From Patescibacteria group bacterium (GTDB lineage: Bacteria > Patescibacteriota > WWE3 > JAMCXX01 > JBBTUG01): a DNA stretch of 64,000 nt. The notes under the pieces were generated by a model, which was not told the DNA's origin, ran no database searches, and saw nothing but the letters and a program-made list of their open reading frames with translations. The stretch lies in contig JBBTUG010000006.1 in assembly GCA_038063895.1 (NCBI GenBank), forward strand, positions 6,701 to 70,700, read 5' to 3'. Shown here piece by piece: positions 11,571 to 53,117 of the stretch (the stretch's first letter is position 1; each line of letters starts with the position of its first letter). The position numbers and the translations under genes are program-made.

Positions 11571-12167
11571 ATGCCACACTCCATTCTACTAAGTAACTTA
11601 CCGCCTAGCGGCGGGTCTTTAACCCTTCGGGACAAAATTCTTTTGAGTCTTTTGTGTGTTGGGGCGATGGTTGAGACTACTTTAGCTGAAGCGTCTACGC
11701 CACAGACTATTGAATATGCTCTAAGTTCCTTGGAGCGGAAGGAGTTTATTCGAAAGAAGCGAGGTTCGATTAAGAGTACAATTTCTTACCTACTGGCCGA
11801 AAAACTTCTTCGGGCCAGCGGGTCGTATCGCAAGAGATCATTTCAGCTGACCGAGGAAGGGTTGAATACTCTTTTTTCCAAGTTTCCCACCCTTAAGTAT
11901 CGGAAGTTTAATTGGGACGGTCGTTGGCGTGTTGTGATTTATGATATCCGTGAACAGGATCACCGTCTCAGAGACCGGTTAAGAACAAGGCTTAAATCCC
12001 TCGGTTTTAAGTTTATGCAAAAAAGTGTTTGGATCTCGCCATATCCGATGGAAGCGGATCTGGAGGATTTTCTCCGAAAAGAAAATCTTTGGGGAAGAAT
12101 CTTCGTCTTTTCGGCGACTTTGCCGAAAAAGGAAAATCTAAAAATAATCCGATTATTTAATCTTTAA
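11571..12167 (+). CDS. PaaX-like family protein (winged-helix plus PaaX_C-like domain), paralog 1
   Basis: 'WDGRWRVVIYDIREQDHRLRDRLRTRLKSLGFKFMQKSVWISPYP' matches the PaaX C-terminal domain signature (W.G.W..V.Y.IPE..R..R..L...GFG.LQ...WISP). Confidence 0.5.
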   Translation: MPHSILLSNLPPSGGSLTLRDKILLSLLCVGAMVETTLAEASTPQTIEYALSSLERKEFIRKKRGSIKSTISYLLAEKLLRASGSYRKRSFQLTEEGLNTLFSKFPTLKYRKFNWDGRWRVVIYDIREQDHRLRDRLRTRLKSLGFKFMQKSVWISPYPMEADLEDFLRKENLWGRIFVFSATLPKKENLKIIRLFNL

Positions 12168-17729: not shown

Positions 17730-19061
17730 ATGAAATTCATTGCTGAAGGCGGTCTCCCGCTTAAAGGAAATATTTCAATTTCCGGATCGAAAAATGCCGT
17801 GATCAAGATGATCGCAGCGTCTTTGCTGACGGAGGAGGAAGTCGTATTAAACAATGTCCCGGAGATCAAAGACGTTGATTTAATAAAAACTATTGCCGCC
17901 AATTTAGGGGTAAAAATCGACAACTCCGCTCCCCACCGGTTGAAACTCAGAGCGGATAATATTCCGACGACCGTCGTTCCCCAAACTTTGGGTTTACCCT
18001 CCCGGTCAAGTGTTATATTCCTCGGTCCTCTTTTGGCCCGTTTCGGGAAAGTGACATTTCCGGAGCCCGGCGGAGACCTCATCGGAAAACGGCCGATCAA
18101 TTGGCACTTATCCTCTCTTTCCCAACTCGGAGCCAAAGTCTCGTATGAAAACGGTATCTACCAGGCCGAAGCCGCGAAATTAACCGGAAGTACAATTGTT
18201 TTTAAGCGGAATACGGTGATGGGAACGGAAAATTGCCTTTTAGGCGCAACCCTGGCTGAAGGCGAGACTATTCTTTCTAATGCCGCCCAGGAACCGGAAG
18301 TGGACGATTTAATTGATTTGCTGAATAAGATGGGCGCGAAGATTACCCGGGTTGAAGACCGGACCATCAAAATTGTGGGAGTGCCCCGCCTTTCCGGCGC
18401 TAATCACGAAGTCCTTCCCGACCGCAACGAGACCGTAACTTACGCGGTAGCGGCGGTGGCTACCGCCGGAGATTTAACTTTAGAGAATGTCCGGCCGGGA
18501 AATCTGACCGCTTTTTTGGCCAAATTGGAAAAAATGGGCGCACATTTTGAAGCCGGGAAAGACACCCTCCGGGTTTGGCGCGATCCCGGCGTGGTCTTAA
18601 ATCCCGTCAGCGTGGAAACGTCGCCGCACCCCGGATTTATGACCGACTGGCAGCAGCCGTTTTGTATTTTGCTGACCCAGTGTAACGGCGAAAGTTATAT
18701 TTACGAGACGATTTACGCTAACCGCTTCGAATACGTTAAGGAGCTGAACCGGATGGGCGCCCAGGTCCGGCTGATGACTCCCGAGCAGCTCGGTCTCCCG
18801 TTTAAATTGGATGATGAAAGTTACGACGTGGCCGCCAACGGCCAGCCACCGATTGTGGCTAAGATAACCGGGCCGACCGCTCTCCAGGGAAAACGGGTGA
18901 GCATCAGCGATTTAAGAGCCGGAGCGACATTGGTAATTGCCGCTTTAACCGCGACCGGAAAAAGCGAGATTTTGGGAATCGACCACATCGACCGCGGTTA
19001 CGAATTTTTCGATGAAAAAATGCGCTCTATCGGTGCGAAACTGGAACGGGTTGAGGATTAG
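17730..19061 (+). CDS. murA: UDP-N-acetylglucosamine 1-carboxyvinyltransferase
   Basis: 'MKFIAEGGLPLKGNISISGSKNAVIKMIAASLL' is the MurA N-terminus. About 443 aa. Confidence 0.9.
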   Translation: MKFIAEGGLPLKGNISISGSKNAVIKMIAASLLTEEEVVLNNVPEIKDVDLIKTIAANLGVKIDNSAPHRLKLRADNIPTTVVPQTLGLPSRSSVIFLGPLLARFGKVTFPEPGGDLIGKRPINWHLSSLSQLGAKVSYENGIYQAEAAKLTGSTIVFKRNTVMGTENCLLGATLAEGETILSNAAQEPEVDDLIDLLNKMGAKITRVEDRTIKIVGVPRLSGANHEVLPDRNETVTYAVAAVATAGDLTLENVRPGNLTAFLAKLEKMGAHFEAGKDTLRVWRDPGVVLNPVSVETSPHPGFMTDWQQPFCILLTQCNGESYIYETIYANRFEYVKELNRMGAQVRLMTPEQLGLPFKLDDESYDVAANGQPPIVAKITGPTALQGKRVSISDLRAGATLVIAALTATGKSEILGIDHIDRGYEFFDEKMRSIGAKLERVED

Positions 19062-19624
19062 TTGCCGGAAAAGGCCATCAACTCCCGCAGTTTGGCGATT
19101 GACCGGTAGACGATTGTGGAGACATTGGTTTCGGAAAGACCCAACTGCGCGGCGATAGTTTTGTTCGTTTGTCCCTCGTAAAATTTTAAGTAGATAATTT
19201 CTTTTTCTCTTGCCGGAAGAGTGGCCAAGATTTCATCGATGTCGTTTTTTAGATCCATCTCCAGATAGCTTTCCTCAGGATCCTTAGTTTTATCCGGGAC
19301 AGTTTCCGCCTCCTGAAAAGGAAGCTTCCGGTTTACTTCCCGCGTGTACTGGCGGTAATAATCGATAAGAGTATTGCCGGCGATCCGGTAAAGCCAGGCC
19401 GAGAAGGAAACGCCCTGCCATTTATAATTGTCGAGGCCGGTGAAAGCCTTTTCGAAAACTTTAGCGGTCAGTTCATCCGCCGTTTCCGCCGGGACGTGGC
19501 GGAGAAAATAACTTTTTATATAGGGATAGTAATGCTCAAAGAGGGGTGCGAAATACTTTTTATCCCGGCGGCATTTTTTAATAAGGTCTTCTTCGAGTGC
19601 CGGATTTAAGGAAATTTTTGACAT
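19058..19624 (-). CDS. ECF-type RNA polymerase sigma factor (sigma-70 regions 2 and 4)
   Basis: Region 2 'FSAWLYRIAGNTLIDYYRQ' and region 4 'LSETNVSTIVYRSIAKLRE'. 188 aa. Confidence 0.8.
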   Translation of the reverse strand: MSKISLNPALEEDLIKKCRRDKKYFAPLFEHYYPYIKSYFLRHVPAETADELTAKVFEKAFTGLDNYKWQGVSFSAWLYRIAGNTLIDYYRQYTREVNRKLPFQEAETVPDKTKDPEESYLEMDLKNDIDEILATLPAREKEIIYLKFYEGQTNKTIAAQLGLSETNVSTIVYRSIAKLRELMAFSGN

Positions 19625-19629
19625 CAGAG

Positions 19630-20481
19630 TTATTCCAAAAAAGTCTGTAGCTTTGTCCGGGGACCACGGATAACGATAGTTTTATATTTTTCCAGTACAG
19701 GCTTTGGTTCTGGGGCGAATACCGGATCCTTAATTTGCGGGCCCTCTTTTTTTAGTAGACTCCGCTCAAGTACATAGGCTCGAGGCTCCGGCAAAGCTTC
19801 CGCTACTTCCTGAACTGCCCGGAGTGGGCAAGGGTAGTAATAATAGGAGGCGTCAAGGATAAATTGTTTGCGGAGGTTACGGCGGACGGAAATCCGGCTT
19901 TGGGGTAGCGCGACCATCTTTGGGACATTATTAATATATTCCTCCGGTATCCGGTAGTAGCGGCCCAGTCCGGCAATGGCCGAGGTATAGAGGTCCTGAG
20001 CGTCAAAAGAAACGGCGGGACATTGAATTACGGTTGTCTTTTCGGTGTTAATAATTTTTGGCAGGACGTTTTCCCCACTCAGGATTAGGAATTTCGGTTT
20101 TGTGATTTCCAGCCAGTATGTCAGGCTCTCGAGATTTCCGATGCCCATTTCCAGGATTAGGATATGGAAATAGGCTTTAGTGGTCAGCCATTGGCGGATA
20201 ATTTTGAAAAGCAGAGGCAGCCATTGCCAGTCGGCCGTCGGGTAGGACGGGCTTCCTAGGATGGTTAACGGAACGGAAAATTCGGATTCGGGTGACTCCA
20301 GGTTCCGCCGGGCCGGATATTTTTCGTGCAGGAGAGTATATACGGCTTCCCGGATAATGCCGGTTGGGCCGGTGCCGAGTACCGCAATCACGTCCGGCCG
20401 ATGTTTACTGATTACGGCACGGCTAAGGAATCTCAAGGCAATTCGCAGGGAACGCCGGGCGAACCGATGAATAACATTCAT
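19630..20481 (-). CDS. Mur-ligase-like protein with a degenerate P-loop (putative pseudoenzyme), co-oriented upstream of the ECF sigma factor
   Basis: 'VIAVLGTGPTGIIRE' aligns to the Mur ligase 'VIGVTGTNGKTTTKE' motif, with GKT replaced by PTG (codons at 20359-20376). 'ILEMGIGNLESLTYWLEITKPKFLILSGEN' aligns to 'vlEvg..l...l....kPdiavitNi..dH' but lacks the His. There is no Mur_ligase_C domain. Confidence 0.45.
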   Translation of the reverse strand: MNVIHRFARRSLRIALRFLSRAVISKHRPDVIAVLGTGPTGIIREAVYTLLHEKYPARRNLESPESEFSVPLTILGSPSYPTADWQWLPLLFKIIRQWLTTKAYFHILILEMGIGNLESLTYWLEITKPKFLILSGENVLPKIINTEKTTVIQCPAVSFDAQDLYTSAIAGLGRYYRIPEEYINNVPKMVALPQSRISVRRNLRKQFILDASYYYYPCPLRAVQEVAEALPEPRAYVLERSLLKKEGPQIKDPVFAPEPKPVLEKYKTIVIRGPRTKLQTFLE

Positions 20482-20558
20482 TCTGTAATTATATAACGTT
20501 TCGCCTCCGTTTTTCTGACAGTGGGGATAAGTGACGGGTCGGAGAGTGGTGCGTTACA

Positions 20559-21977
20559 ATGGTTAACATGCCTGAAACTCTTCCCCGAAATCTAAAACAC
20601 ATTCATTTTGTCGGCATTAAGGGCGTCGGATTAGCTAACCTGGCTCTTTACGCCAAGCAACAGGGAATAAAAGTCACCGGGTCGGACGTGGCGGAAGTTT
20701 TCGTAACCGACTCGGTTCTGGCCGAAAACGGAATAGGTTGGAGCGTGGGCTTTTCCAGAGCGAATATTCCTGGAAACCCTGATTTAGTGATAGCCACGGC
20801 CGGTCACGGCGGTATGACTAATCCGGAAGTCGAAGGCGCAAAAGAAGCGGGTCTGAAGGTCTTAACATACGCTCAGGCGTTAGGCCTATTTATGGAAGGA
20901 AGTTACGGCATCTCGGTTTGCGGCGTCGGGGGAAAAGGTTCGACTTCTTCTCTTTTGGCTGAGGTACTGGTTAGTGCCGGGACGGACCCCAGTTACATTA
21001 TTGGCGTGGCCCGGATTAACCCTCTCGGTTTTGGCGCCCACTACGGGTTGGGGCCGCATTTTGTGGCCGAGGCGGATGATTACGTTGCCTGCCCGTTAAC
21101 GGACCGCCAGCCGAAATTTAATTACCAAAAACCCAAGATGATTATTGTGACTAATATTGAGTACGATCATCCCGACGTCTACCCGAATTTTAAAGCCACG
21201 AAAATAGCGTTCGCCAAGTTTTTTAACGCTCTTCCCGAAGACGGGCTACTGGTGGCCAATATTGATAATGCCGGAGTGAGAGAGGTTTTAAAGCAGTATC
21301 ACGGATGTCTGGCGACGTATGGTTTTTCTCCGGAGGCCGAATATCGAATTACCGGCGACAAACTTTCTCCCAATGAGCAGGACTTTAATGTGGCAGGAAT
21401 CGGTAATTTTCAGCTCCATATTCCCGGCCGCTACAACGTCCTGAATGCTGCTGCGGCGGCCGTGGCCGCCAGTAAACTCGGGCTTAGCCCGGAGAAGATT
21501 AAGGCCGGAATCGGCCAATTTCAAGGAATGTCTCGCCGGTTTGAATTCGTTGCCAAGATCAACTCAATCGATCTCTACGATGACTACGCCCACCATCCCC
21601 AAGAAATTGCCGGTCTGATTGACGCCTCCCGGGAATGGTTTCCGAACCGCCGGCTGATCATAATTTTTCAACCGCATACCTTCAGTCGGACCCGCGCGCT
21701 TTTTGAGGAGTTTGCGGCTGCTTTGGGGAAAGCTGATTTAATTCTTCTGCTCGATATCTACGCCTCCGCCCGCGAGCAGCCGGACCCCGGGGTCAGCAGC
21801 GAAACACTTTCCGGGGCAGTTAAAAAATATAATCAGAATGTTCACTACCTCCCGAAGACGGCGGATCTCACCGATTTCTTAAAAAAGAATAAAAAGTCCG
21901 GGGACGTGGTAATTACGGTCGGGGCGGGAGATATATTCCTGTCGCATCCGGTAATAATTAAGGCTTTAGAAAGATGA
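20559..21977 (+). CDS. murC: UDP-N-acetylmuramate--L-alanine ligase
   Basis: N-terminal Rossmann 'IHFVGIKGVGLANLA', a P-loop variant 'GVGGKGSTSS', and 'IIVTNIEYDHPDVY'. Confidence 0.8.
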   Translation: MVNMPETLPRNLKHIHFVGIKGVGLANLALYAKQQGIKVTGSDVAEVFVTDSVLAENGIGWSVGFSRANIPGNPDLVIATAGHGGMTNPEVEGAKEAGLKVLTYAQALGLFMEGSYGISVCGVGGKGSTSSLLAEVLVSAGTDPSYIIGVARINPLGFGAHYGLGPHFVAEADDYVACPLTDRQPKFNYQKPKMIIVTNIEYDHPDVYPNFKATKIAFAKFFNALPEDGLLVANIDNAGVREVLKQYHGCLATYGFSPEAEYRITGDKLSPNEQDFNVAGIGNFQLHIPGRYNVLNAAAAAVAASKLGLSPEKIKAGIGQFQGMSRRFEFVAKINSIDLYDDYAHHPQEIAGLIDASREWFPNRRLIIIFQPHTFSRTRALFEEFAAALGKADLILLLDIYASAREQPDPGVSSETLSGAVKKYNQNVHYLPKTADLTDFLKKNKKSGDVVITVGAGDIFLSHPVIIKALER

Positions 21978-23028: not shown

Positions 23029-23871
23029 ATGGAAAAGAGGCAACCGATAATCTGGTACTTAGAAAACAAATTTATCCATTCCACGGATGCGAAAATTCCA
23101 ATCACCGATTTAGGCTTACAGCGGGGGTGGGGAGTCTTTGATTTTTTGCGGACCTACTCTGGTCAGCCTTTCCAGCTATCGGTGCACGTTGCGCGTTTTT
23201 TGCGTTCAACCAAAGGATCCTTGATTAATCTCAACAAATCCGCCGAGGAACTTACTCAATTGGTCAACCGATTGATTGCCCGTAACTCGGTGGTTGGGAG
23301 TGTCGGGATAAAGCTATTCGCCACGGCTGGGAATAGCCGTGATGGGCTGACAGGCGGGAAAAAGCCGACCTTTGGGATTATGCTTTTACCTCTCCATCGC
23401 TACCCCCGGGCAACGTATACTCGGGGAATTAAACTTGGTATTTATCGGGAGTTAAGGACAAATCCGGAGGTTAAATCCACCAACTACGCCGCGGTTCTCG
23501 TTAAAATGGCGGTGGAAAAACGCCGGGGTTTTGATGATATTCTTTACGTCGGGACGAATAATGTTGTTTATGAATCCGCCCGCAGTAATTTTTTTGCGTT
23601 GATTAACGGAACTTGGATAACGCCGAAGGAAGGGGTCTTGCCCGGAATTACCCGGAAGCTGGTGATTGGGTTGTCCCGAAAACGTTATCCGGTGAGGGAA
23701 GGGGTGCTGACTTTGGCGCAACTTAAAAAGGCCGGCGAGGCTTTTATCACTTCAACAGAGCGGGAGGTTATGCCGGTGGTGAAGGTGGGCAGCTTTCGCA
23801 TCGGAAACGGCAGGGTTGGGGATAAGACGAAACAACTAATGGCTGATTTTCACCGGTTTACTCTTCAATAA
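23029..23871 (+). CDS. Class IV (fold-type IV) aminotransferase, likely D-amino-acid transaminase supplying D-Glu
   Basis: 'GLQRGWGVFDFLRTYSGQPFQLSVHVARFLRS' is a Dat/IlvE family signature. The gene sits between murB and murD. Confidence 0.65.
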   Translation: MEKRQPIIWYLENKFIHSTDAKIPITDLGLQRGWGVFDFLRTYSGQPFQLSVHVARFLRSTKGSLINLNKSAEELTQLVNRLIARNSVVGSVGIKLFATAGNSRDGLTGGKKPTFGIMLLPLHRYPRATYTRGIKLGIYRELRTNPEVKSTNYAAVLVKMAVEKRRGFDDILYVGTNNVVYESARSNFFALINGTWITPKEGVLPGITRKLVIGLSRKRYPVREGVLTLAQLKKAGEAFITSTEREVMPVVKVGSFRIGNGRVGDKTKQLMADFHRFTLQ

Positions 23872-26829: not shown

Positions 26830-28593
26830 ATGTGCGGAATATTTGGTTACATCGGAAATAGAAAACAAGCCGGACCACTCGTACTTGCGGGTTTGAAAAC
26901 ACTCGAATACCGCGGCTACGATAGTTGGGGAATTGCCTGGCTGGACAACGGTTCAATTAAAGTCATTAAAAAGGTCGGAAAAATCGGTCTGGCAGCGCCG
27001 AAATTCCCCCCGTCCTTTCTGGCCTTGGGCCAAACTCGGTGGGCGACACACGGGGGGGTAACGGTGGCAAACGCTCACCCTCATTTTGACTGTCACCGAC
27101 GGGTGGCGATTGTCCATAACGGGATCGTGGAGAATTACCAGGAGATTACAAAGAGCTTTAAAAAAACCCATCTTATCCGTTCCCAGACGGATACCGAAAT
27201 TATCAGTCATCTAATTGAGGAGGAGTTAGTGATTCGGAATAATTTTACGGTGGCAGTGAGAGCGGCTTTCTTACGCTTAAAAGGGCTTAATGCGGTGGTA
27301 GCTTTGGATAAGGATAACCGGCAGTTGGTCGCCGTTAAAAACGGGTCCCCTTTAGCAGTCGGTTTAGGCAAAGAGGAAAATTATCTGGCCTCCGACGCGC
27401 TGGGGATTGCGGAACACACTAAAAAAATAATTTATCTGGGAGATAACGAGTTGGCTGAAATTAGCGGCAAACGGGTTTCCCTTTACGATGTAAAAACCGG
27501 AAAACCGAAAAAAATAAAGATCAGTAAAATTGACTGGCAGCAAAAGGATGAAGGCTTGGGAAAATATCCCCATTACTTAATTAAGGAGGTTTATGACCAG
27601 CCCCGGGTGCTGGCGCGGATTAATAAAGAAGCGGGTGGCGACATCTCTTACTTGTCCCGGTTAATTGCCCGGAGTTTCGGGACCTATCTAATCGGTTGCG
27701 GTTCGGCCGCTTACGCCGCTTTAACCGGAACCTACTTTTTCAGTGAGATCGCGAAAAAGCACGTGAATTTTTCTATCGGGAGCGAATTTACTTTCCAGGA
27801 GCATTTTATTACGCCGAAAAGTCTGATCATCGCCCTTTCCCAAAGTGGTGAGACGGCGGATATCCTCGAAGCGGTAAAAAAAGCCAAAGCTCGGGGAGGC
27901 AAAATTGGCGCTTTAGTTAATGTTCCGGGCTCTTCTCTTTTCCGTCTGGCCGATTATAAAATTCTCATCGGAGCCGGACAGGAACACGCAGTTCTTTCGA
28001 CCAAAGCCTTCACCGGCCAAATCGCGCTTTTATTGCTAACAGCATACAGTTTAGCCGGTCAGGCGGAGTCGGGCCGCAAGGTACTGGCTCGCGCGGTCCG
28101 CTCGTTAAAAATTGTGTTAAATAACCATACTCAGCGTAGGGTTAAAAAATTAGCCGTTATGCTTAAGAATAAGGACCATGTCTACGTTATCGGGCGGGGT
28201 GTTTCTTATCCGGCGGCGCTCGAGGGCGCTTTAAAAATTAAAGAAGACAGTTATATCCACGCCGAAGGTTTTGCCGCGGGTGAGCTAAAACACGGGGTAA
28301 TTGCGCTGATTGAATCGGGAACACCTTGTTTTGTTATAGCCCCACCTGATGAGACTTTCCCTGCAGCGCTGGCGGGGGCGATGGAGATGAAAGCGCGGGG
28401 CGGAATAATAATCGGCCTGGCCGCTAGGAACAACGAAATCTTTGATTATTTTATTGAAGTGCCCGATTGCGGACAGGCGTCGATTATTCCCAATGTAGCC
28501 GTTTTCCAGACTTTAAGTTATTATTTGGCAGTGCTTCGGGGGGCGGATCCGGATAAGCCGAGAAATCTGGCTAAAAGCGTCACCGTGAAGTAA
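26830..28593 (+). CDS. glmS: Glutamine--fructose-6-phosphate aminotransferase
   Basis: 'MCGIFGYIG' N-terminal Cys and two SIS domains. 587 aa. Confidence 0.9.
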   Translation: MCGIFGYIGNRKQAGPLVLAGLKTLEYRGYDSWGIAWLDNGSIKVIKKVGKIGLAAPKFPPSFLALGQTRWATHGGVTVANAHPHFDCHRRVAIVHNGIVENYQEITKSFKKTHLIRSQTDTEIISHLIEEELVIRNNFTVAVRAAFLRLKGLNAVVALDKDNRQLVAVKNGSPLAVGLGKEENYLASDALGIAEHTKKIIYLGDNELAEISGKRVSLYDVKTGKPKKIKISKIDWQQKDEGLGKYPHYLIKEVYDQPRVLARINKEAGGDISYLSRLIARSFGTYLIGCGSAAYAALTGTYFFSEIAKKHVNFSIGSEFTFQEHFITPKSLIIALSQSGETADILEAVKKAKARGGKIGALVNVPGSSLFRLADYKILIGAGQEHAVLSTKAFTGQIALLLLTAYSLAGQAESGRKVLARAVRSLKIVLNNHTQRRVKKLAVMLKNKDHVYVIGRGVSYPAALEGALKIKEDSYIHAEGFAAGELKHGVIALIESGTPCFVIAPPDETFPAALAGAMEMKARGGIIIGLAARNNEIFDYFIEVPDCGQASIIPNVAVFQTLSYYLAVLRGADPDKPRNLAKSVTVK

Positions 28594-28695
28594 GGTAGTA
28601 ATGCCACTAATCTTCTCCACGAATTAACCACGAATGGGAAGATTATTTGTGGACTATTCGTGAAGGGAATTCGTGGCGTTAATTCCAAAAAAACT

Positions 28696-29679
28696 ATGAA
28701 GAATTTTAAAATTACCGTCATTGGTGGGGGCACCGGAACGTTTGTGGTGCTGCGCGGATTAAAAAATTATCCGGTCGACTTAACGGCTATTATTACCGTA
28801 ACCGACAGCGGCGGTTCGACCGGCCGTCTTCGGTCTGAGTTCGGATTTTTACCGGTGGGGGATTTGCGCCAATGCTTAGCGGCTCTGGCCGACGACGACA
28901 ATGAAGCCTTAATAAAGCTTTTAACCTACCGCTTCAATAAGGGAAGGGGAATTAAAGGGCATAATCTCGGCAATCTTATTTTAACAGGGCTGCGCGATAT
29001 TTTCGGCTCAGAGCCGAAAGCGCTGGAGCACGCCGCTTCTCTTTTCCGGATAAACGGAAATGTTCTACCGGTCTCTCTGTCCCAAGCAACGCTTGGCGCT
29101 GTTTATGAAAATGGGAAAAAGCTTATCGGCGAGCACGAGATTGATCAGCCGAGTTTTGGCGGAGGGCTGCGGGTCCGCCGGATTTTTCTCAGACCGGAAA
29201 TAAGCCTTTACGCTAAGGCGGCCAAAGCGATTGAGGATTCGGATTTGATAGTTCTCGGCCCCGGAGATATTTACACCAGTACCTCCCCCTGCCTTCTCGT
29301 CAACGGGATGAGAGAAGCGTTAAATAAATCCCGGGGACAGTTGGTTTACATCGTAAATTTAATGAACCGATATTCCCAAACCCACAATTTTAAAGTTTCC
29401 GATTATATTAGCGAAATTGAAAAGTACGCCTGTCGGCCGGTAGATGTTGCCGTTGTGAATACCGGAAAAATCCCGGCAAAATTTCTTAAGTTTTACCTTA
29501 AAGAACGGGCAACGATACCTCTTGATGATTTAGCGGAGAACGAAAAGGTGCACGTCATCCGTGGGGATTTCGCCCGCCGGCAGTTAATTGAAAAGGTGGC
29601 GGGGGATAAACTTCAGCGGAGTTACTTGCGTCACGACGAGGATAAACTGGCGCGGGCGCTGATTAAGATACTGCTGTAA
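28696..29679 (+). CDS. YvcK/GlmR-like (UPF0052/CofD family) gluconeogenesis factor-like protein
   Basis: 'MKNFKITVIGGGTGTFVVLRGLK' and 'TVTDSGGSTGRLRSEFG' are family signatures. A likely real start at 28696 lies inside the ORF-track ORF 28660..29679. Confidence 0.7.
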   Translation: MKNFKITVIGGGTGTFVVLRGLKNYPVDLTAIITVTDSGGSTGRLRSEFGFLPVGDLRQCLAALADDDNEALIKLLTYRFNKGRGIKGHNLGNLILTGLRDIFGSEPKALEHAASLFRINGNVLPVSLSQATLGAVYENGKKLIGEHEIDQPSFGGGLRVRRIFLRPEISLYAKAAKAIEDSDLIVLGPGDIYTSTSPCLLVNGMREALNKSRGQLVYIVNLMNRYSQTHNFKVSDYISEIEKYACRPVDVAVVNTGKIPAKFLKFYLKERATIPLDDLAENEKVHVIRGDFARRQLIEKVAGDKLQRSYLRHDEDKLARALIKILL

Positions 29680-29680
29680 A

Positions 29681-30835
29681 ATGAAAGAAATGGAAAACGA
29701 AAAGAAAAACATCGGAGTAATATTTGGCGGAATGAGCGCCGAATGCGAGGTATCTTTAGCAACGGGGAGATACGTTTACTCGCTGCTAAATAATAAAAAA
29801 TTTACCGGAACGCCATTTTATTTGGATAAAAAAGGCACTCTTTGGCAGGTTCCAGACAAACTGGTAATCCAAAATACGACGACGGATATCGAGCAGCGCC
29901 TGGAGAAGGACGCGAGCCGGGTAAATTTCGAGGACCTTCCCGGGAAAGTCAGCTGTGTTTTTAATGCGCTGTTGGGCAAGTACGGCGAGGATGGCTGTTT
30001 TCAGGCGATCTTGGAATTGTTGAAAATTCCTTACACCGGTTCAGGAATTCTCGCTTCCGCGTTGGGGATGGATAAAAAAGTCCACAAGAAAATGCTCTCC
30101 GGGGCGGGGTTTTTAGTGGCCAAAGATCTATTAATTCGTAATTCGGAATTCGATATTCGGAAAGTTACGGAAAAAGTTTCCAGGGAAATCGGTTTCCCCT
30201 GCGTTGTGAAGCCGACCCGGGAAGGTTCAAGTATGGGAGTGTCGGTGGTTAAAGAAGAAAAGGGTTTGGAAACAGCGTTCGAGTACGCCTTTAAGTATGA
30301 TCAGGAGGTTCTTGTCGAAGAGTATCTGAAAGGGATGGAGTTTACCTGCGTGGTTTGGGGCAACGACGATCCGAAAGCTATGCTCCCTACCGAAGTCGTG
30401 TTCGAGGGCGATTTTTTTACGTATGAAGGTAAATACATGCCGGGAAAAACCCAGACGATTACGCCCGCCCGGCTTTCGGAAGAGGGCTTGGCCGAGATAC
30501 AGCGCCAATCCGTGGCGATTTATCAGCTGATTGGTTGCCAGGGCTATGGCCGGGTTGACGGCTTTGTCGTTCCTAAGACCCTAAAGGTCGGGGAGCCCAG
30601 ACCTTTAGGGTCTTTGAGTTTGTCTGATATCTCAATTTACATCGCTGAGCCGCACACGGGAACAATTATGGTTCCTTCGTCTTTCGTTTTTCAACAGGCG
30701 GCGAAGTTCCGGATTGATCTGTCCACAGAATTCCATGGAAAAAAAGGTTCGATTCCGATGACCCCGCGCATTTTGGTAACAAAAATTATTGAGTTAGCCT
30801 TCGAAGCGTTTAGCAATAAGAAAGGATTATTATGA
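29681..30835 (+). CDS. ddl: D-alanine--D-alanine ligase (paralog 1; Lys-Tyr retained at the K215/Y216-equivalent position)
   Basis: ATP-grasp motifs 'FPCVVKPTREGSSMGVS' and 'FFTYEGKYMPG' (K at 30431-33, Y at 30434-36). The C-terminus is extended by a repeat insertion. Confidence 0.8.
   Translation: MKEMENEKKNIGVIFGGMSAECEVSLATGRYVYSLLNNKKFTGTPFYLDKKGTLWQVPDKLVIQNTTTDIEQRLEKDASRVNFEDLPGKVSCVFNALLGKYGEDGCFQAILELLKIPYTGSGILASALGMDKKVHKKMLSGAGFLVAKDLLIRNSEFDIRKVTEKVSREIGFPCVVKPTREGSSMGVSVVKEEKGLETAFEYAFKYDQEVLVEEYLKGMEFTCVVWGNDDPKAMLPTEVVFEGDFFTYEGKYMPGKTQTITPARLSEEGLAEIQRQSVAIYQLIGCQGYGRVDGFVVPKTLKVGEPRPLGSLSLSDISIYIAEPHTGTIMVPSSFVFQQAAKFRIDLSTEFHGKKGSIPMTPRILVTKIIELAFEAFSNKKGLL
30577..30612 (+). 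repeat. 36-bp palindromic element, copy B (in-frame inside ddl paralog 1)
   Basis: Perfect 13-bp arms 'gaccctaaaggtc'/'gacctttagggtc' with loop 'ggggagccca'. It encodes KTLKVGEPRPLG. Confidence 0.85.
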
Positions 30836-31884
30836 GCGGCATATTAAGAATTGGTTTATTTATCGGCGGGCTGTCTTCGGAAAAGGAAATCTCTTTGGAA
30901 TCAGGGCGTCACGTCTACAACAGTCTTGACCGGGAAAAGTATGAAGTTCTTCCGATCTTTGTCGATAATGAAGCCCATCTTTGGGAGATTGAGGAGGGGT
31001 TGCTGTGGAAAAATACCACCACAGATCTTAAAGATGCCCTCGGTAGCGGGGGAAGCCGGGTTTACTACGAAGATTTAAGAAATAAGATTGATTTTGCTTT
31101 TATTTGCCTCCACGGAAAATACGGCGAGGACGCCTTCCCGGGACTTTTTGAGATACTGGGAATTCCCAACAACGGCGCCTCCGTTTTGGGAGGAGCATTG
31201 TCAATGGACAAATACCGCCAAAGGATGGTTTTGCAGGCGGCTGGGATCGATACTCCAAAGTATTTTCCAATCGAAAATTCCAAGTTCCAAATTCCAAATT
31301 CCAAAATATTTGATGAAGTAGAAGCTGTGTTAAGTTACCCGGTAATGGTGAAGCCGTCGCGGGAGGGAAGTTCAACCGCACTGCATAAGGTGAATAACCG
31401 GGGAGAACTTGAAGCCGCACTTTCCGATGCCTTTATTTACGATAAAGTCGCCTTGGTCGAGGAAGTTTTGGTCGGAACGGAGTTAACGACATTGGTTTAT
31501 GGCGAAGGCGAAAATATTAAAGCCCTGCCGCCATCGGAACTTCTCCGGGGAGGGGATTTCCTTACCGCCCAGGAAAAATTTCTGCCGGGTGGGGCGCAGA
31601 TGATAACCCCGCCGCGGCTACCTGTGGAAGTAGTTGAGGAGGTAAAGAGAGCAGCGGTGAATACGTTTCAGGCGTTAAGTCTTAAGGTCTATAGCCGGAT
31701 CGATTCATTTTACGTTCCGGGTCGGGGAGTGGTAATTTTGGAGCCGAATAACCCGCCGGCGATGACGCCCTCGACGGCTTTGTGGCTTGAGGCTGCCGAA
31801 GAAAACCTTAACGCTTCCCAATTGTTAGATGATCTGATCCGTATCTCCCTTGTCCTCCACGCCGCCAAACTCGGCCCACTTTAA
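30832..31884 (+). CDS. D-alanine--D-X ligase (Ddl paralog 2; Phe replaces Tyr at the Y216-equivalent position)
   Basis: 'YPVMVKPSREGSSTA' and 'FLTAQEKFLPG' (F codon at 31579-31581). About 350 aa. Confidence 0.75.
   Translation: MSGILRIGLFIGGLSSEKEISLESGRHVYNSLDREKYEVLPIFVDNEAHLWEIEEGLLWKNTTTDLKDALGSGGSRVYYEDLRNKIDFAFICLHGKYGEDAFPGLFEILGIPNNGASVLGGALSMDKYRQRMVLQAAGIDTPKYFPIENSKFQIPNSKIFDEVEAVLSYPVMVKPSREGSSTALHKVNNRGELEAALSDAFIYDKVALVEEVLVGTELTTLVYGEGENIKALPPSELLRGGDFLTAQEKFLPGGAQMITPPRLPVEVVEEVKRAAVNTFQALSLKVYSRIDSFYVPGRGVVILEPNNPPAMTPSTALWLEAAEENLNASQLLDDLIRISLVLHAAKLGPL
31278..31306 (+). repeat. Heptanucleotide tandem repeat (ttccaag/ttccaaa x4) inside the ddl paralog 2 coding sequence
   Basis: Seen directly. 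It encodes 'KFQIPNSKIF'. The unit length is not a multiple of 3. Confidence 0.7.
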
Positions 31885-32958: not shown

Positions 32959-33840
32959 ATGAAGATAAGAAAGTGTAAATTAGAAGGTGACTCTAGGGAG
33001 TCCTGCCGCGAGCTCTTCTTAGTTGCCGGCTGGGATATAAAGACTACCAACTCCTTTTCCCGGTTTCTGGCCGAATTGGATGCAACCCCGGCCTCCAAGA
33101 TATTCATCGATTCAATGATCAAGTTTAAAGAAATGTATCCGCCGCTTCGAACCGGTCCCCGTCAGGTTGACTATTTAGGGCTCCTTCGCGGCGAAAATGA
33201 GTATAGGGCAATGAAACGGGCTCAATTTTACCTCAATAAGAAAGACCTTGTGAAGGTTTCCGGTGGACTAGGCGGCAAAAGATTAGTTTTGACAACCCGG
33301 GCCCACCGTATTTTTTACGAAGACTACCCTTTGGCCAAACTACGTCGGGAAAAGTGGAATGGGCTGTGGACAATAGTGATGTATGACTTACCGGAGAAAG
33401 AAAAAAGCTTTCGGGAGTATTTAAGACTAAAGTTAAAAGGACTTGGTTTCGGCAGTCCGCAGGAAAGTGTTCTAATTTCGCCATTGCCAATTGCCGCTCC
33501 GACCCAGGCGTTAATAGAGGGGGAGCAAGCTGAAAGATACGTTTGGGTGGTTTCGGCTCAACGGGTTTTAGGTTTGGACAATCGCGAGGTGGCGGAGAGA
33601 GCGTGGAAACTTGATGAACTTAACATGCTTTATAAATGTCTCTTAAAAGTTTCTCCGGTCGTTAAGGGGAAGAATGATAAGAGTCTTCTCGATGCGTGGC
33701 GCCGCTGCTTTTTAGCGCTGGACAATGTTGACCCGTATCTGCCGCTTGAACTTCTTCCTAAAGATTGGCAAGGAGAGAACTGCCGAAAAGTGGCTGAATC
33801 GTCAGGGTTCGCCGGGTTAATAAAGTCAATTTTTCAGTAA
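32959..33840 (+). CDS. PaaX-like family protein, paralog 2
   Basis: 'WNGLWTIVMYDLPEKEKSFREYLRLKLKGLGFGSPQESVLISPLP' is the same PaaX_C-like signature as the gene at 11571. Confidence 0.5.
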   Translation: MKIRKCKLEGDSRESCRELFLVAGWDIKTTNSFSRFLAELDATPASKIFIDSMIKFKEMYPPLRTGPRQVDYLGLLRGENEYRAMKRAQFYLNKKDLVKVSGGLGGKRLVLTTRAHRIFYEDYPLAKLRREKWNGLWTIVMYDLPEKEKSFREYLRLKLKGLGFGSPQESVLISPLPIAAPTQALIEGEQAERYVWVVSAQRVLGLDNREVAERAWKLDELNMLYKCLLKVSPVVKGKNDKSLLDAWRRCFLALDNVDPYLPLELLPKDWQGENCRKVAESSGFAGLIKSIFQ

Positions 33841-33913: not shown

Positions 33914-35383
33914 TTATCTATAAATATCAGGGAGGTCGTTTTCGAAGAGGATCAGAGAGTTGGGTTTGACTAATTGCGGGATTATCTCTTTGGTTGCCTG
34001 ATCGAGGGAGTCAGTGATGAATAATCTCTGACCTATTGTTCCGTTGTTCCATTGTTTCATTGCTGTGGCGTTGCTCCAGCCGCCTTCTCTAATTCCTTGC
34101 AGAAGGGCTGCACGGTTGGTTTTGTTGACGATCACGGCGTAATCAAAATTTTCGGCAATCAGTTCTCCTAACTTTTTATTCTCTTCGAACTGCTGTTTTC
34201 CCAATTCCACTATTCCCGGAGTCACTATTATTTTTGGGTAGTTGGGTAAACGGGTAATCAGTTTTATTGCGGCCCGGGCGCCCTCCGGGTTGCTGCTGTA
34301 GGCGTCATCAATTATTAACGAGTTTTCGGGGCCGTGGATTAGTTGTAAGCGGTGTTCCGGTGGGCTGACCTTGAATAGGCCGTGCCTTATTTCCTCTTCA
34401 GTTAAGCCTAAATATGTTCCTACAGCAATAGCCGCCAGGGCATTGCTGACGTTGTGGTCTGCCGGGAGGTTGAGGGTGTAAGTGTCTTGTTTTACCCTGA
34501 ACTCGGAGGATTCGGGAGAGGATGAAATAATTTCCGCCTGAAGATCGGCTTCAACTCCGTGCGGTTTGCTAATCCGGGAGTAACCTACTTTATTTATTAT
34601 AGTTTTTAGATAGAGTTCTACGCATGGTTGGGAGTACAGATTGAAAACCGCCAAGCCCTCCTCCGGAAGGGATTGAATCAATTCCGATTTAGCTTCCACG
34701 ATATTTTCCAAACTCCCGAACCGCTCCAGGTGCTGATTAGTTATTCCGGTGATAATCCCGATTTTAGGTCGAACCATCCGGCAGAGTTCCGCAATCTCGC
34801 CTTTTTTGTAGGCGCCCATTTCGACGATAAAGACTTCGTGCTCCGGCTTTAATTTCATATTGATGATACCGGCTATGCCGAAAAGCGTATTGTAGCTTTT
34901 TGGAGTCGCCAAAACTTCGTACTTCGTTGCGAGAACAGTTGCTAGGATTTCCTTCACCGTGGTTTTGCCGTAACTGCCGGTAATTCCGATGACCAATAGG
35001 TTTTTGTGTTCCGTGATAATTTTTTGGGCACGGAGAACCGTCCGGCGGCGGTTGATGATTTCGTATGGCCGGAGAACTAGTAAAGATATTAGAAGTAACG
35101 GCTGGGGGAACAGCTGAAGAAGAATAACGATAATTACACCCTTAAGGTCAAGGCTCCCCGACCTTAAGGGTGTGGCCCAGGGCTGAAATAGAAATATGGG
35201 AGCTAGGCTGAGGGCAGTGGCGCATATGAAAAGAAACCTGGCCTTCGAAGTCCACACCAGCGCCTTTTTCTTTTCCAGTCCTAAACGGAACAAATTTTGA
35301 ACGGTCCATTTAATGAAGCGGACTAGGTCGTATTCCAAAACCTGCAGGGCGTAAAGCTGGTTGTAAAGCGGGATGTACCTCAT
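33914..35383 (-). CDS. murF: UDP-N-acetylmuramoyl-tripeptide--D-alanyl-D-alanine ligase, with an N-terminal hydrophobic extension containing a repeat insert
   Basis: 'LLVIGITGSYGKTTVKEIL' P-loop and 'IGIITGITNQHLERFGS'. The start is set at Met 'MRYIPLYNQL' (35383) because the longer ORF overlaps the upstream hydrolase gene. The two genes overlap in an ATGA arrangement. Confidence 0.85.
   Translation of the reverse strand: MRYIPLYNQLYALQVLEYDLVRFIKWTVQNLFRLGLEKKKALVWTSKARFLFICATALSLAPIFLFQPWATPLRSGSLDLKGVIIVILLQLFPQPLLLISLLVLRPYEIINRRRTVLRAQKIITEHKNLLVIGITGSYGKTTVKEILATVLATKYEVLATPKSYNTLFGIAGIINMKLKPEHEVFIVEMGAYKKGEIAELCRMVRPKIGIITGITNQHLERFGSLENIVEAKSELIQSLPEEGLAVFNLYSQPCVELYLKTIINKVGYSRISKPHGVEADLQAEIISSSPESSEFRVKQDTYTLNLPADHNVSNALAAIAVGTYLGLTEEEIRHGLFKVSPPEHRLQLIHGPENSLIIDDAYSSNPEGARAAIKLITRLPNYPKIIVTPGIVELGKQQFEENKKLGELIAENFDYAVIVNKTNRAALLQGIREGGWSNATAMKQWNNGTIGQRLFITDSLDQATKEIIPQLVKPNSLILFENDLPDIYR
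35137..35172 (+). repeat. 36-bp palindromic element, copy C (in-frame inside the murF N-terminal region)
   Basis: Perfect arms 'cacccttaaggtc'/'gaccttaagggtg' with loop 'aaggctcccc'. It encodes PLRSGSLDLKGV in murF. Confidence 0.85.
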
Positions 35384-36105
35384 AAAATAAATTCCGAGAT
35401 TAATTTTGCGACCAGAGCCGGTTGTTCTATAAACGGGAAATGGCCGCACTGCGGGATAATTTTTAAGACCGAGTTTTTTATTCCCCTTTTCATAATCGCC
35501 GCGTCGCGGATGGGAGTTTCGGGATCTTCCTCGCCCCAAATAAGTAACGTTGGAGCCGCAATATTGCTCAACTTAGTCCGAAGGTCCTCTTCCACAATTA
35601 TAGCCATTGTCGCCTTCATCGGACCGGCGGCGCGGTAATCTTCCGATTGGAAGGATTTTGCCAGAGGTTTTTTAATAAATTCGGGAGAATTCGAAAAAGC
35701 TTTCGACATTAGAAGTTTCGTTTGGGTGAGGATGTCGCGGCGGCGGATTCCCGCGCTGTCAATCAAAATCATTTTCTTTACTCCGTTATATTCCAGCGCG
35801 TAGGCGAGTGCAATTTTCCCGCCAACCGAGTGTCCCAATAAAATGGGTGATTCGATTTCCAGTTCCTTAAAAAATTGATTTAATAAGGCGGCGTAATCGC
35901 GGCTGGAAAAAGGGGTTGCCGGAACCGAGCTTTCTCCGAAACCGGGCAGGTCCAAAAAGATCATTTGGAAAGGGAGCGCCGCGAGGTAAGGTTTTAAACT
36001 TTCCCAAATCTGCAGATTAGCTCCCCACCCGTGCAAAAAAACAATTTGTTCTCCGCGCCCGTAAACCTCGAAGTTGATATTCAGTCCCTTGATTGAGATG
36101 TTCAT
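35380..36105 (-). CDS. Alpha/beta-hydrolase fold protein
   Basis: 'VFLHGWGANLQIWE' and the nucleophile elbow 'GHSVGG'. 241 aa. Confidence 0.7.
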   Translation of the reverse strand: MNISIKGLNINFEVYGRGEQIVFLHGWGANLQIWESLKPYLAALPFQMIFLDLPGFGESSVPATPFSSRDYAALLNQFFKELEIESPILLGHSVGGKIALAYALEYNGVKKMILIDSAGIRRRDILTQTKLLMSKAFSNSPEFIKKPLAKSFQSEDYRAAGPMKATMAIIVEEDLRTKLSNIAAPTLLIWGEEDPETPIRDAAIMKRGIKNSVLKIIPQCGHFPFIEQPALVAKLISEFIL

Positions 36106-53020: not shown

Positions 53021-53097
53021 TTGGTGCGCATGCCTGGAATCGAACCAGGGACCTCTACGATGTGAACGTAGCGCTCTAACCATCTGAGCTACATGCG
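53021..53097 (-). tRNA. tRNA-Val (anticodon CAC), CCA encoded
   Basis: Reverse complement folds as a cloverleaf: acceptor GCGCATG/CATGCGC, D-arm GCTC-AGATGGTTA-GAGC, anticodon stem CTACG with loop TTCACAT, T-arm CCTGG-TTCGATT-CCAGG, discriminator A, then CCA. Confidence 0.85.
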
Positions 53098-53117
53098 CTT
53101 AAGAATAAATGGTGTCA

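Follow-up and report, generated by a model that had tools for sequence, protein, structure and literature searches.

A putative MurF-derived pseudoenzyme paired with an ECF sigma factor in the cell-wall gene cluster of Patescibacteria

Within a 64,000-nucleotide stretch of the genome of a Patescibacteria group bacterium (GenBank assembly GCA_038063895.1, contig JBBTUG010000006.1, positions 6,701 to 70,700; hereafter the window, to whose numbering positions refer unless a locus is named), a gene encoding a 283-aa protein, designated here X (19630-20481, minus strand), is followed on the same strand by a gene for a 188-aa sigma factor of the extracytoplasmic function (ECF) type (19058-19624, minus strand). 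X and this sigma factor form a conserved two-gene module with strict two-way co-occurrence. We propose, with moderate confidence, that X is a catalytically dead, miniaturised descendant of the MurF type of the candidate phyla radiation (CPR), and that it serves as the dedicated partner of a Patescibacteria-specific clade of ECF sigma factors, most likely as a soluble anti-sigma factor.

The Patescibacteria, or CPR, account for a sizeable part of bacterial diversity, have mostly not been cultivated and possess very few recognisable regulators, and we know of almost nothing on the control of their cell-wall synthesis and division. In full-text literature searches, neither a Mur-ligase-like partner of a sigma factor nor this CPR module was found described. 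The X-sigma pair suggests an undescribed kind of sigma-factor partner, perhaps linking transcription to cell-wall precursor synthesis. If this is true, the module would rank among the few regulatory circuits so far identified lineage-wide in Patescibacteria, would add an enzyme-derived soluble class of partners to ECF sigma regulation, and would be a bacterial counterpart to the MurE-like subunit of plastid RNA polymerase, itself unexplained. It also raises the question, open to test with two small recombinant proteins, of whether a cytoplasmic peptidoglycan-precursor signal gates a sigma factor.

Conservation and expression of the X-sigma pair

The product of the downstream gene has the features of an ECF (group IV) sigma factor, with only the sigma-2 and sigma-4 domains (Pfam Sigma70_r2, 1.3e-13; Sigma70_r4_2, 2.1e-12), a length within ~180-200 aa and a score above the family threshold (NCBIfam TIGR02937, 111.8 bits against a cut-off of 42.9); no equivalog-level family was reached in NCBIfam. 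The gene for X, characterised here through its open reading frame (ORF), MurF homology, structural modelling and substitution rates, is annotated in the source metagenome-assembled genome (MAG) as a "hypothetical protein" (identical protein).

When loci were collected from X, this sigma gene was found immediately downstream and on the same strand in all 12 distinct X loci from genomes, with L103 as one further case, in MAGs that their depositors labelled WWE3, Doudnabacteria, Saccharibacteria or Patescibacteria. Wherever sequence downstream of an X gene is readable, the next gene belongs to this sigma clade. These and the following counts cover the loci returned by the searches, which are not a complete survey, and some start codons in metagenomic loci were chosen by alignment. 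When loci were collected from the sigma factor, a metagenome scan gave 80 loci, the 30 best of which are mostly at least 40% identical; X lies directly upstream in 26, three have no upstream sequence on the contig, and there is one exception, so that 26 of the 27 best homologues whose upstream DNA can be read are preceded by X. The exception (L046, 38% identity, from a high-GC organism) has a sigma factor outside the clades linked to X or to its sister family X2 (see below), with a classical membrane anti-sigma gene downstream and no X. X was beside none of the other 50, more distant ECF sigma genes of the scan. The co-transcription and strict co-occurrence of classical anti-sigma factors are therefore also seen in X, both in the genome loci (12/12) and in the sigma-centred ones (26/27).

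A preliminary description of this DNA had placed X immediately upstream of the ECF sigma gene, on the same strand and between murA and murC of the opposite strand, and had recognised no anti-sigma gene. That placement holds, the pair was found in every relative examined, and neither a conserved third gene nor any other anti-sigma candidate is present at the X-sigma loci examined. After the sigma gene, the next gene is convergent, being murA in ~20 loci and a CofD-like gene in six (the X-locus subclade L002, L007, L008, L013, L018 and L026, where the CofD-like gene takes the convergent position instead of murA). The module always lies among mur genes (murA, murC/B/E) or beside mraY or a CofD-like gene; in L002 the pair has no mur gene beside it except a GT4/mraY-like gene, and the sigma gene is still present. 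In locus L009 (6845-7445), the sigma gene that follows X is broken into two frames, either by a frameshift or by an assembly error.

The distance from the X stop codon to the sigma start codon is between -10 and +24 nt in 27 of 29 loci, and overlaps of 1-10 nt are usual. In the window the junction is likewise tight, with the TAA of X and a 5-nt spacer preceding the sigma ATG (19625-19632, minus strand). From this spacing, translation of the sigma factor is probably coupled to that of X. X evolves faster than the sigma factor (mean p-distance 0.60 vs 0.51), and the pairwise distances of the two proteins correlate with r=0.96, or with a partial r of 0.73 when controlling for MurA, which as a crude mirror-tree statistic is weak evidence.

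A perfect TATAAT -10 hexamer (20488-20493, minus strand) precedes the start codon of X by 6 nt, and 25 of 28 X loci have a -10-like hexamer at a distance of 4-16 nt upstream of the ATG, versus 9% of random positions. A strict sigma-70 scan called no -35/-10 pair for X, the -35 being poor, and no ECF-type promoter (AAC ... CGT) was seen by eye in the 12- and 28-locus sets of upstream sequences. This layout indicates a leaderless or near-leaderless X-sigma mRNA, predicted to start from a housekeeping-type promoter. As no ECF-type promoter was seen, the sigma factor would not be mainly autoregulated, and control after translation, through a protein partner, becomes more plausible. The divergent murC gene (20559-21977, plus strand, assigned by homology) has the same layout, with a TACAAT hexamer that overlaps its first ATG (20531-20568 region), because of which its real start is probably 20568. 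Both divergent genes thus carry a -10 hexamer 6-8 nt before an ATG, and leaderless transcripts may be common in this lineage.

Descent of X from MurF and its sister family X2

Searches with phmmer returned a dozen relatives of X of 262-304 aa, followed by true MurFs at E 5e-10 to 3e-5. A family profile built from 12 X members and searched against 1.84 billion representatives found 68 proteins at E<1e-30, all of ~220-300 aa; past a clear gap in length and score came hundreds of MurFs of 400-450 aa, each matched in two stretches, and the MurFs hit by the profile number more than 800 in all. The best sequence matches of the profile in the PDB were the MurF entries 2am1, 3zm5 and 3zl8, to which X is colinear (X 14-77 with MurF 86-149, X 106-139 with 154-189, and X 160-281 with 270-397). 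The AlphaFold2 (AF2) model of X (pLDDT 82, pTM 0.62) retrieved MurF structures first in Foldseek (3zl8, 2am1, 4qf5, 1gg4; E 8e-8 to 7e-6, probability 1.0), followed by MurT, folylpolyglutamate synthases and other Mur ligases; the TM-scores are only ~0.5, because parts of the Mur ligase are missing in X. The model, the Foldseek matches and the comparison of the profile with the PDB all give a Mur-ligase central domain followed by a Rossmann-like C-terminal domain. As judged from these comparisons, X is derived from MurF and not from MurE. The kinship with Mur ligases that the preliminary description had read from an alignment to the central domain is thus confirmed by the profile searches and the modelled fold, and is narrowed to MurF.

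On the other hand, X has no match to the Pfam families Mur_ligase_M and Mur_ligase_C, even at E<=1, and scores 15.1 bits with the NCBIfam murF model TIGR01143, below its cut-off of 288.6, so that it remains under the curated thresholds of all three. The true MurFs closest to X are short MurFs of 420-440 aa from other CPR bacteria (P0014-P0017, P0082-P0086; loci L015-L017). These begin directly at the helix before the P-loop and therefore appear to lack the N-terminal domain of canonical MurF. The closest of them, P0016 and P0017, have no sigma gene beside them and occupy the canonical position in the dcw (division and cell wall) cluster. The window itself carries a genuine MurF gene (33914-35539, minus strand) whose GSYGKT, NQH and DDAYSSNP motifs are all intact, so that X is not the only MurF copy of this genome but an additional, non-catalytic paralogue.

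The X family comprises ~70 clusters at 50% identity, all from Patescibacteria, of similar length and with an intact reading frame. Compared with the 81%-identical orthologue in L103, the ratio of nonsynonymous to synonymous substitution rates (dN/dS) is 0.09 for X, 0.04 for the sigma factor and 0.03 for murA, values that are approximate because dS is near saturation. Judged by these rates, X is under purifying selection and not decaying.

To compare residues, columns at least 80% conserved in 66 MurFs were examined in 70 representatives of the X family. In place of the MurF P-loop GSxGKT, X has the degenerate GTGPTG (residues 36-41; 20359-20376, minus strand). The Walker Gly and Lys are G and K in 66/66 MurFs, and the X column aligned to the Lys holds T (49), S (8) or P (8) of 70; in the other possible register of the alignment, K is found in 4/70 X and the former Lys position varies among Q, P, E, S and N. 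One subclade (L011, L024, L032, L035, L038-L043; P0011, P0023) has retained a Lys, in a loop shortened by one residue (GEGKTG), and its sigma factors differ at the N-terminus, with MDLKEEEKL... in place of MSKISLDP..., which hints at co-variation of the partners. At the Mg site, the His present in 66/66 MurFs falls in a gap in 69/70 X. E111 (20149-20151, minus strand) is the retained counterpart of the Mg-binding Glu of Mur ligases (E in 53/70, Q in 11, D in 5), so that of the Glu and His pair the first is kept and the second is gone.

Further differences concern the substrate loop and both ends of the protein. The "N-x-N-N-E-I-G" substrate loop of MurF is replaced by a family-specific loop, RRNLESPESEF (residues 58-68; 20278-20310, minus strand), in which E62 and E67 are invariant and R58, R59, N60 and F68 nearly so; the MurF-invariant Asn of the NNE-I-G loop aligns to E65, within this conserved acidic loop (R-R-N-x-E-x-P-E-x-E-F). 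E62, Y80 and W123 are invariant in the family and new with respect to MurF. The N-terminus forms, in the AF2 model, a basic amphipathic helix (residues 3-27; 20401-20475, minus strand) with nearly invariant R9, R13, L16 and L19, which is common to the short CPR MurFs and X2. X lacks the MurF N-terminal domain and, in the central domain, ~80 residues of the second half. A reduced C-terminal domain (residues 196-283; 19633-19896, minus strand) aligns to MurF 300-397 and keeps R196 (R in 55, K in 14 of 70), D210 (70/70), Y213 and P217 of the MurF "GR ... DDSYNANP" motif; the second Asp, the Asn, the whole E-L-G...H segment and the last ~55 residues are lost, so that the C-terminal MurF motifs (G-R ... 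D-D-x-Y-N-x-x-P; E-L-G ... H) are incomplete.

MurF is thus the evolutionary parent of X, with the same fold, a colinear alignment and a common dcw neighbourhood. Both share the N-terminal helix, the "RRN" and "PLTILG" motifs, E111, R196, D210-x-x-Y and P217, and they differ in that X has no Walker Gly-Lys and no Mg-site His, has lost ~80 central and ~55 C-terminal residues, and has its substrate loop replaced. X lacks four of the five features of Mur-ligase/MurF membership and for that reason should not be filed as a MurF. Considering the catalytic residues lost, catalysis by X is very unlikely. The preliminary description had called catalysis unlikely, citing among other things the loss of the Walker-A lysine and of the TNI..DH histidine, and the absence of the Walker Lys and of the Mg-site His is borne out across the family; its statement that the C-terminal domain is missing was mistaken, since residues ~196-283 correspond to that domain. 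As the degenerate P-loop is conserved family-wide, a sequencing error that would conceal an intact one is discarded.

The profile search also brought up X2, another family of pseudo-MurFs (~257 aa), in which the P-loop is degenerate in a different way (e.g. GWYGT) and the place of the family-specific loop of X is taken by another conserved loop, W-W-D-x-S. Its loci, with the proteins in parallel order, are L099:5001-5774, L100:666-1439, L101:139-915 and L102:4001-4795 (P0115, P0138, P0098, P0122). In the four X2 loci with downstream sequence (4/4), X2, a sigma gene and murE lie in this order on one strand, with the sigma gene overlapping murE, and murA is directly upstream of X2 where the contig reaches that far; the order in L099 is mraZ-rsmH-DivIC-PBP-murA-X2-sigma-murE (PBP, penicillin-binding protein). 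X and X2 were monophyletic with respect to MurFs in 99/100 neighbour-joining bootstraps, and the X-linked and X2-linked sigma factors are sister clades. A single origin of X and X2 is probable on the basis of these trees, and the module is probably old within Patescibacteria. The two families are alignable only over their first ~135 residues, and in X2 a larger part of the central domain seems to be preserved, while the C-domain seems to be absent. As only this part is shared, a function common to both probably resides in the N-terminal portion, with its basic helix, degenerate P-loop, RRN and family-specific loop, W87 and W123. Because the X2-sigma pair is co-directional with the mur genes, the antisense orientation emphasised in the preliminary description, although true of the X locus, is a feature of that lineage and not central to function.

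Role of X

In the mechanism we propose, a housekeeping-type -10 promoter would drive the X-sigma operon, the mRNA being leaderless or nearly so, and coupling of sigma translation to that of X would yield both proteins together and in fixed proportion. X would then bind the sigma factor in the cytoplasm and gate its access to RNA polymerase, in its most likely mode as a soluble anti-sigma factor of a new structural class, with a presumably inhibitory action. The effector could be linked to peptidoglycan precursor synthesis, either as a nucleotide or muropeptide ligand or through contact with a Mur enzyme, and the sigma regulon would in this way be tied to the state of the surrounding dcw pathway. 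The preliminary description had imagined a pseudo-Mur ligase that acts as a sensor for UDP-MurNAc-peptide or another cell-wall precursor, or as an anti-sigma module coupling precursor status to an envelope-stress sigma factor; the dead Mur-ligase descendant, the conserved pair and the absence of another anti-sigma candidate at the loci agree with that idea, whereas the antisense arrangement that accompanied it proved inessential.

Known ECF sigma/anti-sigma pairs (RpoE-RseA, SigW-RsiW, SigM-YhdL/YhdK) are likewise tightly spaced two-gene units with a faster-evolving partner and an association with cell-envelope genes. In contrast to them, X is a soluble, enzyme-derived alpha/beta protein encoded upstream of its sigma factor, with no membrane-anchored helix bundle, and the X-sigma promoter looks housekeeping-type and not autoregulated.

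Several observations weigh against an anti-sigma role. X has no anti-sigma domain (ASD) helix bundle, no zinc motif (H-x3-C-x2-C) and no match to a Pfam anti-sigma family, nor was a hydrophobic segment, as expected of a transmembrane helix, seen by eye in its sequence or model, no topology predictor having been run. Its gene precedes the sigma gene, whereas most anti-sigma genes lie downstream. The X2 pair sits inside a mur operon and overlaps murE, which would fit a role in the Mur machinery equally well. The mirror-tree correlation is a crude measure, and the family hits, which are of 223-304 aa or contig fragments except for the chimera P0013, include no natural fusion of X with the sigma factor. 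The trees that join X and X2 are neighbour-joining only, on short divergent sequences, and long-branch attraction between two fast-evolving families is possible. Finally, and against the precursor-sensing step in particular, the UDP-binding N-domain is absent and the substrate loop is acidic, which speaks against an anionic UDP-muropeptide at the old site.

A more specific form of the anti-sigma proposal would make X and X2 a cytoplasmic class of anti-sigma factors acting as receptors for a peptidoglycan-precursor signal (UDP-MurNAc-peptide, D-Ala-D-Ala, or the occupancy of Mur enzymes or MraY), whose release and capture of the sigma factor would exert feedback control on dcw; we regard this form as speculative and rather improbable. 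Sensing of UDP-MurNAc-peptide by X is possible but not favoured, because the UDP-binding N-domain is absent, being already gone in the parental short MurFs, and the old substrate loop is now acidic. R196 and D210, the counterparts of which we take to contact the nucleotide in Mur ligases, are kept in X and count toward ligand binding, but apparently they are not kept in X2.

Among the alternatives, X could be an accessory protein of peptidoglycan-precursor synthesis with no catalytic activity, either a scaffold or regulator docked on MurE, MurF or MraY or a competitor of MurF for substrate; the sigma gene would then be no more than a co-transcribed neighbour controlling cell-wall genes, and the two proteins would not touch. 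The constant location of the module among mur genes, the operon murA-X2-sigma-murE with its sigma/murE overlap, the Mur-ligase invariants E111, R196 and D210 that X keeps, and the N-terminal helix that it has in common with short CPR MurFs would all suit such an accessory. Its coupling to the sigma factor is nevertheless stricter than to any mur gene (e.g. L002), gene overlaps of 1-10 nt with the sigma gene are the usual arrangement, and a common Mur interface would have to lie within the N-terminal ~135 residues, the only part shared by X and X2; we hold this alternative to be unlikely, though not negligible.

Somewhat more doubtful is that X acts positively, binding the sigma holoenzyme or the beta-prime clamp of RNA polymerase as an accessory of the PAP11 or Crl kind that the sigma factor would need. 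Obligate co-occurrence and co-translation suit such a co-factor as well as an inhibitor, but, as far as is known, the characterised co-transcribed partners of ECF sigma factors are overwhelmingly inhibitors. PAP11 is a MurE-like protein bound to the beta-prime clamp of the plastid RNA polymerase, where it possibly clashes with sigma (PMC11561172), and two of its structures (8r6s_Q, 9epc_Q) are among the Foldseek matches of X; it represents, as X would, a Mur-ligase fold taken over by a transcription machine of bacterial type, with no apparent part in peptidoglycan synthesis. However, PAP11 contacts the polymerase through C-terminal elements absent from bacterial MurE (PMC11561172). It is a full-length, MurE-derived, nuclear-encoded eukaryotic protein with added C-terminal elements and a stable core-associated subunit, whereas X is MurF-derived and a sigma-linked operon partner. 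The two resemble each other only in fold and theme; PAP11, recruited independently and from another Mur ligase, is not a homologue in this role but the nearest thematic precedent for X. MurT, of the MurT/GatD lipid II amidotransferase, also ranks high among the fold and sequence matches of X and likewise consists of a central and a C-terminal domain without an N-domain, as half of a two-protein complex, but it keeps its P-loop and ATP-dependent chemistry and partners a glutaminase, while X pairs with a sigma factor.

That X has remained an enzyme, working as a minimal ligase or transferase whose altered chemistry does not require a canonical P-loop, we consider very improbable. The retention of E111, R196, D210 and Y213, the subclade with a Lys in its GEGKTG loop and the strong purifying selection could be explained in that way, but X has neither the Gly nor the Lys that are invariant in the MurF P-loop, 69 or 70 of 70 X sequences lack the Mg-site His and the E-L-G...H motif, and the former Lys position varies freely, unlike a catalytic site. 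Moreover, the ~80 missing residues belong to a part of the central domain that contributes to the ATP site in Mur ligases generally. Least credible of all is that X has no function, as the remnant of a decaying murF or an artefact of annotation. The want of a Pfam match and the label of hypothetical protein would be expected of a remnant, but the conservation data, that is, the intact frame and similar length across diverse Patescibacteria, the low dN/dS and the residues invariant in the family alone, to which the confident AF2 model can be added, refute it for practical purposes.

Gene neighbourhood in the window

The X-sigma pair is antisense inside a complete dcw cluster. On the murA side it is flanked on the plus strand by mraZ, rsmH, an ftsL-like gene, a PBP gene and murA (17730-19061, plus strand, assigned by homology), the last of which is convergent with the sigma gene in the X lineage and, in the X2 lineage, lies directly upstream of the pair and co-directional with it. 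On the murC side follow, also on the plus strand, murC, murB, a class IV aminotransferase gene, murD, murE, glmS, a CofD/YvcK-like gene and two ddl genes; farther along the window are murF (minus strand), mraY, ftsW, murG, ftsA and ftsZ.

The stop codons of the sigma gene and murA overlap convergently by 4 nt (19058-19061, both strands), which leaves no intergenic room for terminators, and an overlap of ~3-4 nt is also present in at least seven other loci. The 3' ends of the two transcripts must therefore overlap, and antisense interference between dcw and X-sigma transcription is possible. No RNA family was found by Rfam near the X-sigma locus, the sole match in the window being a tRNA at 53025-53098.

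Other features of the cluster include the class IV (D-amino-acid type) aminotransferase gene between murB and murD (23029-23871), the CofD/YvcK-like gene located after glmS inside the cluster (26830-29679) and the D-Ala-D-Ala ligase genes in tandem (29681-30835 and 30832-31884). The first ~170 residues of the genuine MurF are hydrophobic and transmembrane-like and replace the usual N-terminal domain; its real start is probably an internal Met (~residue 53), because the listed TTG start overlaps a neighbouring hydrolase ORF. The cell-wall cluster is flanked by PaaX-like genes (PaaX_M, Cas2-like central domain) at 11571-12167 and 32959-33840. At the end of the window, the segment 62000-64000 has a GC content of 0.345 vs ~0.48 elsewhere and is perhaps acquired DNA; an ORF of at least 651 aa begins there, near 62.0 kb, and runs past the window end.

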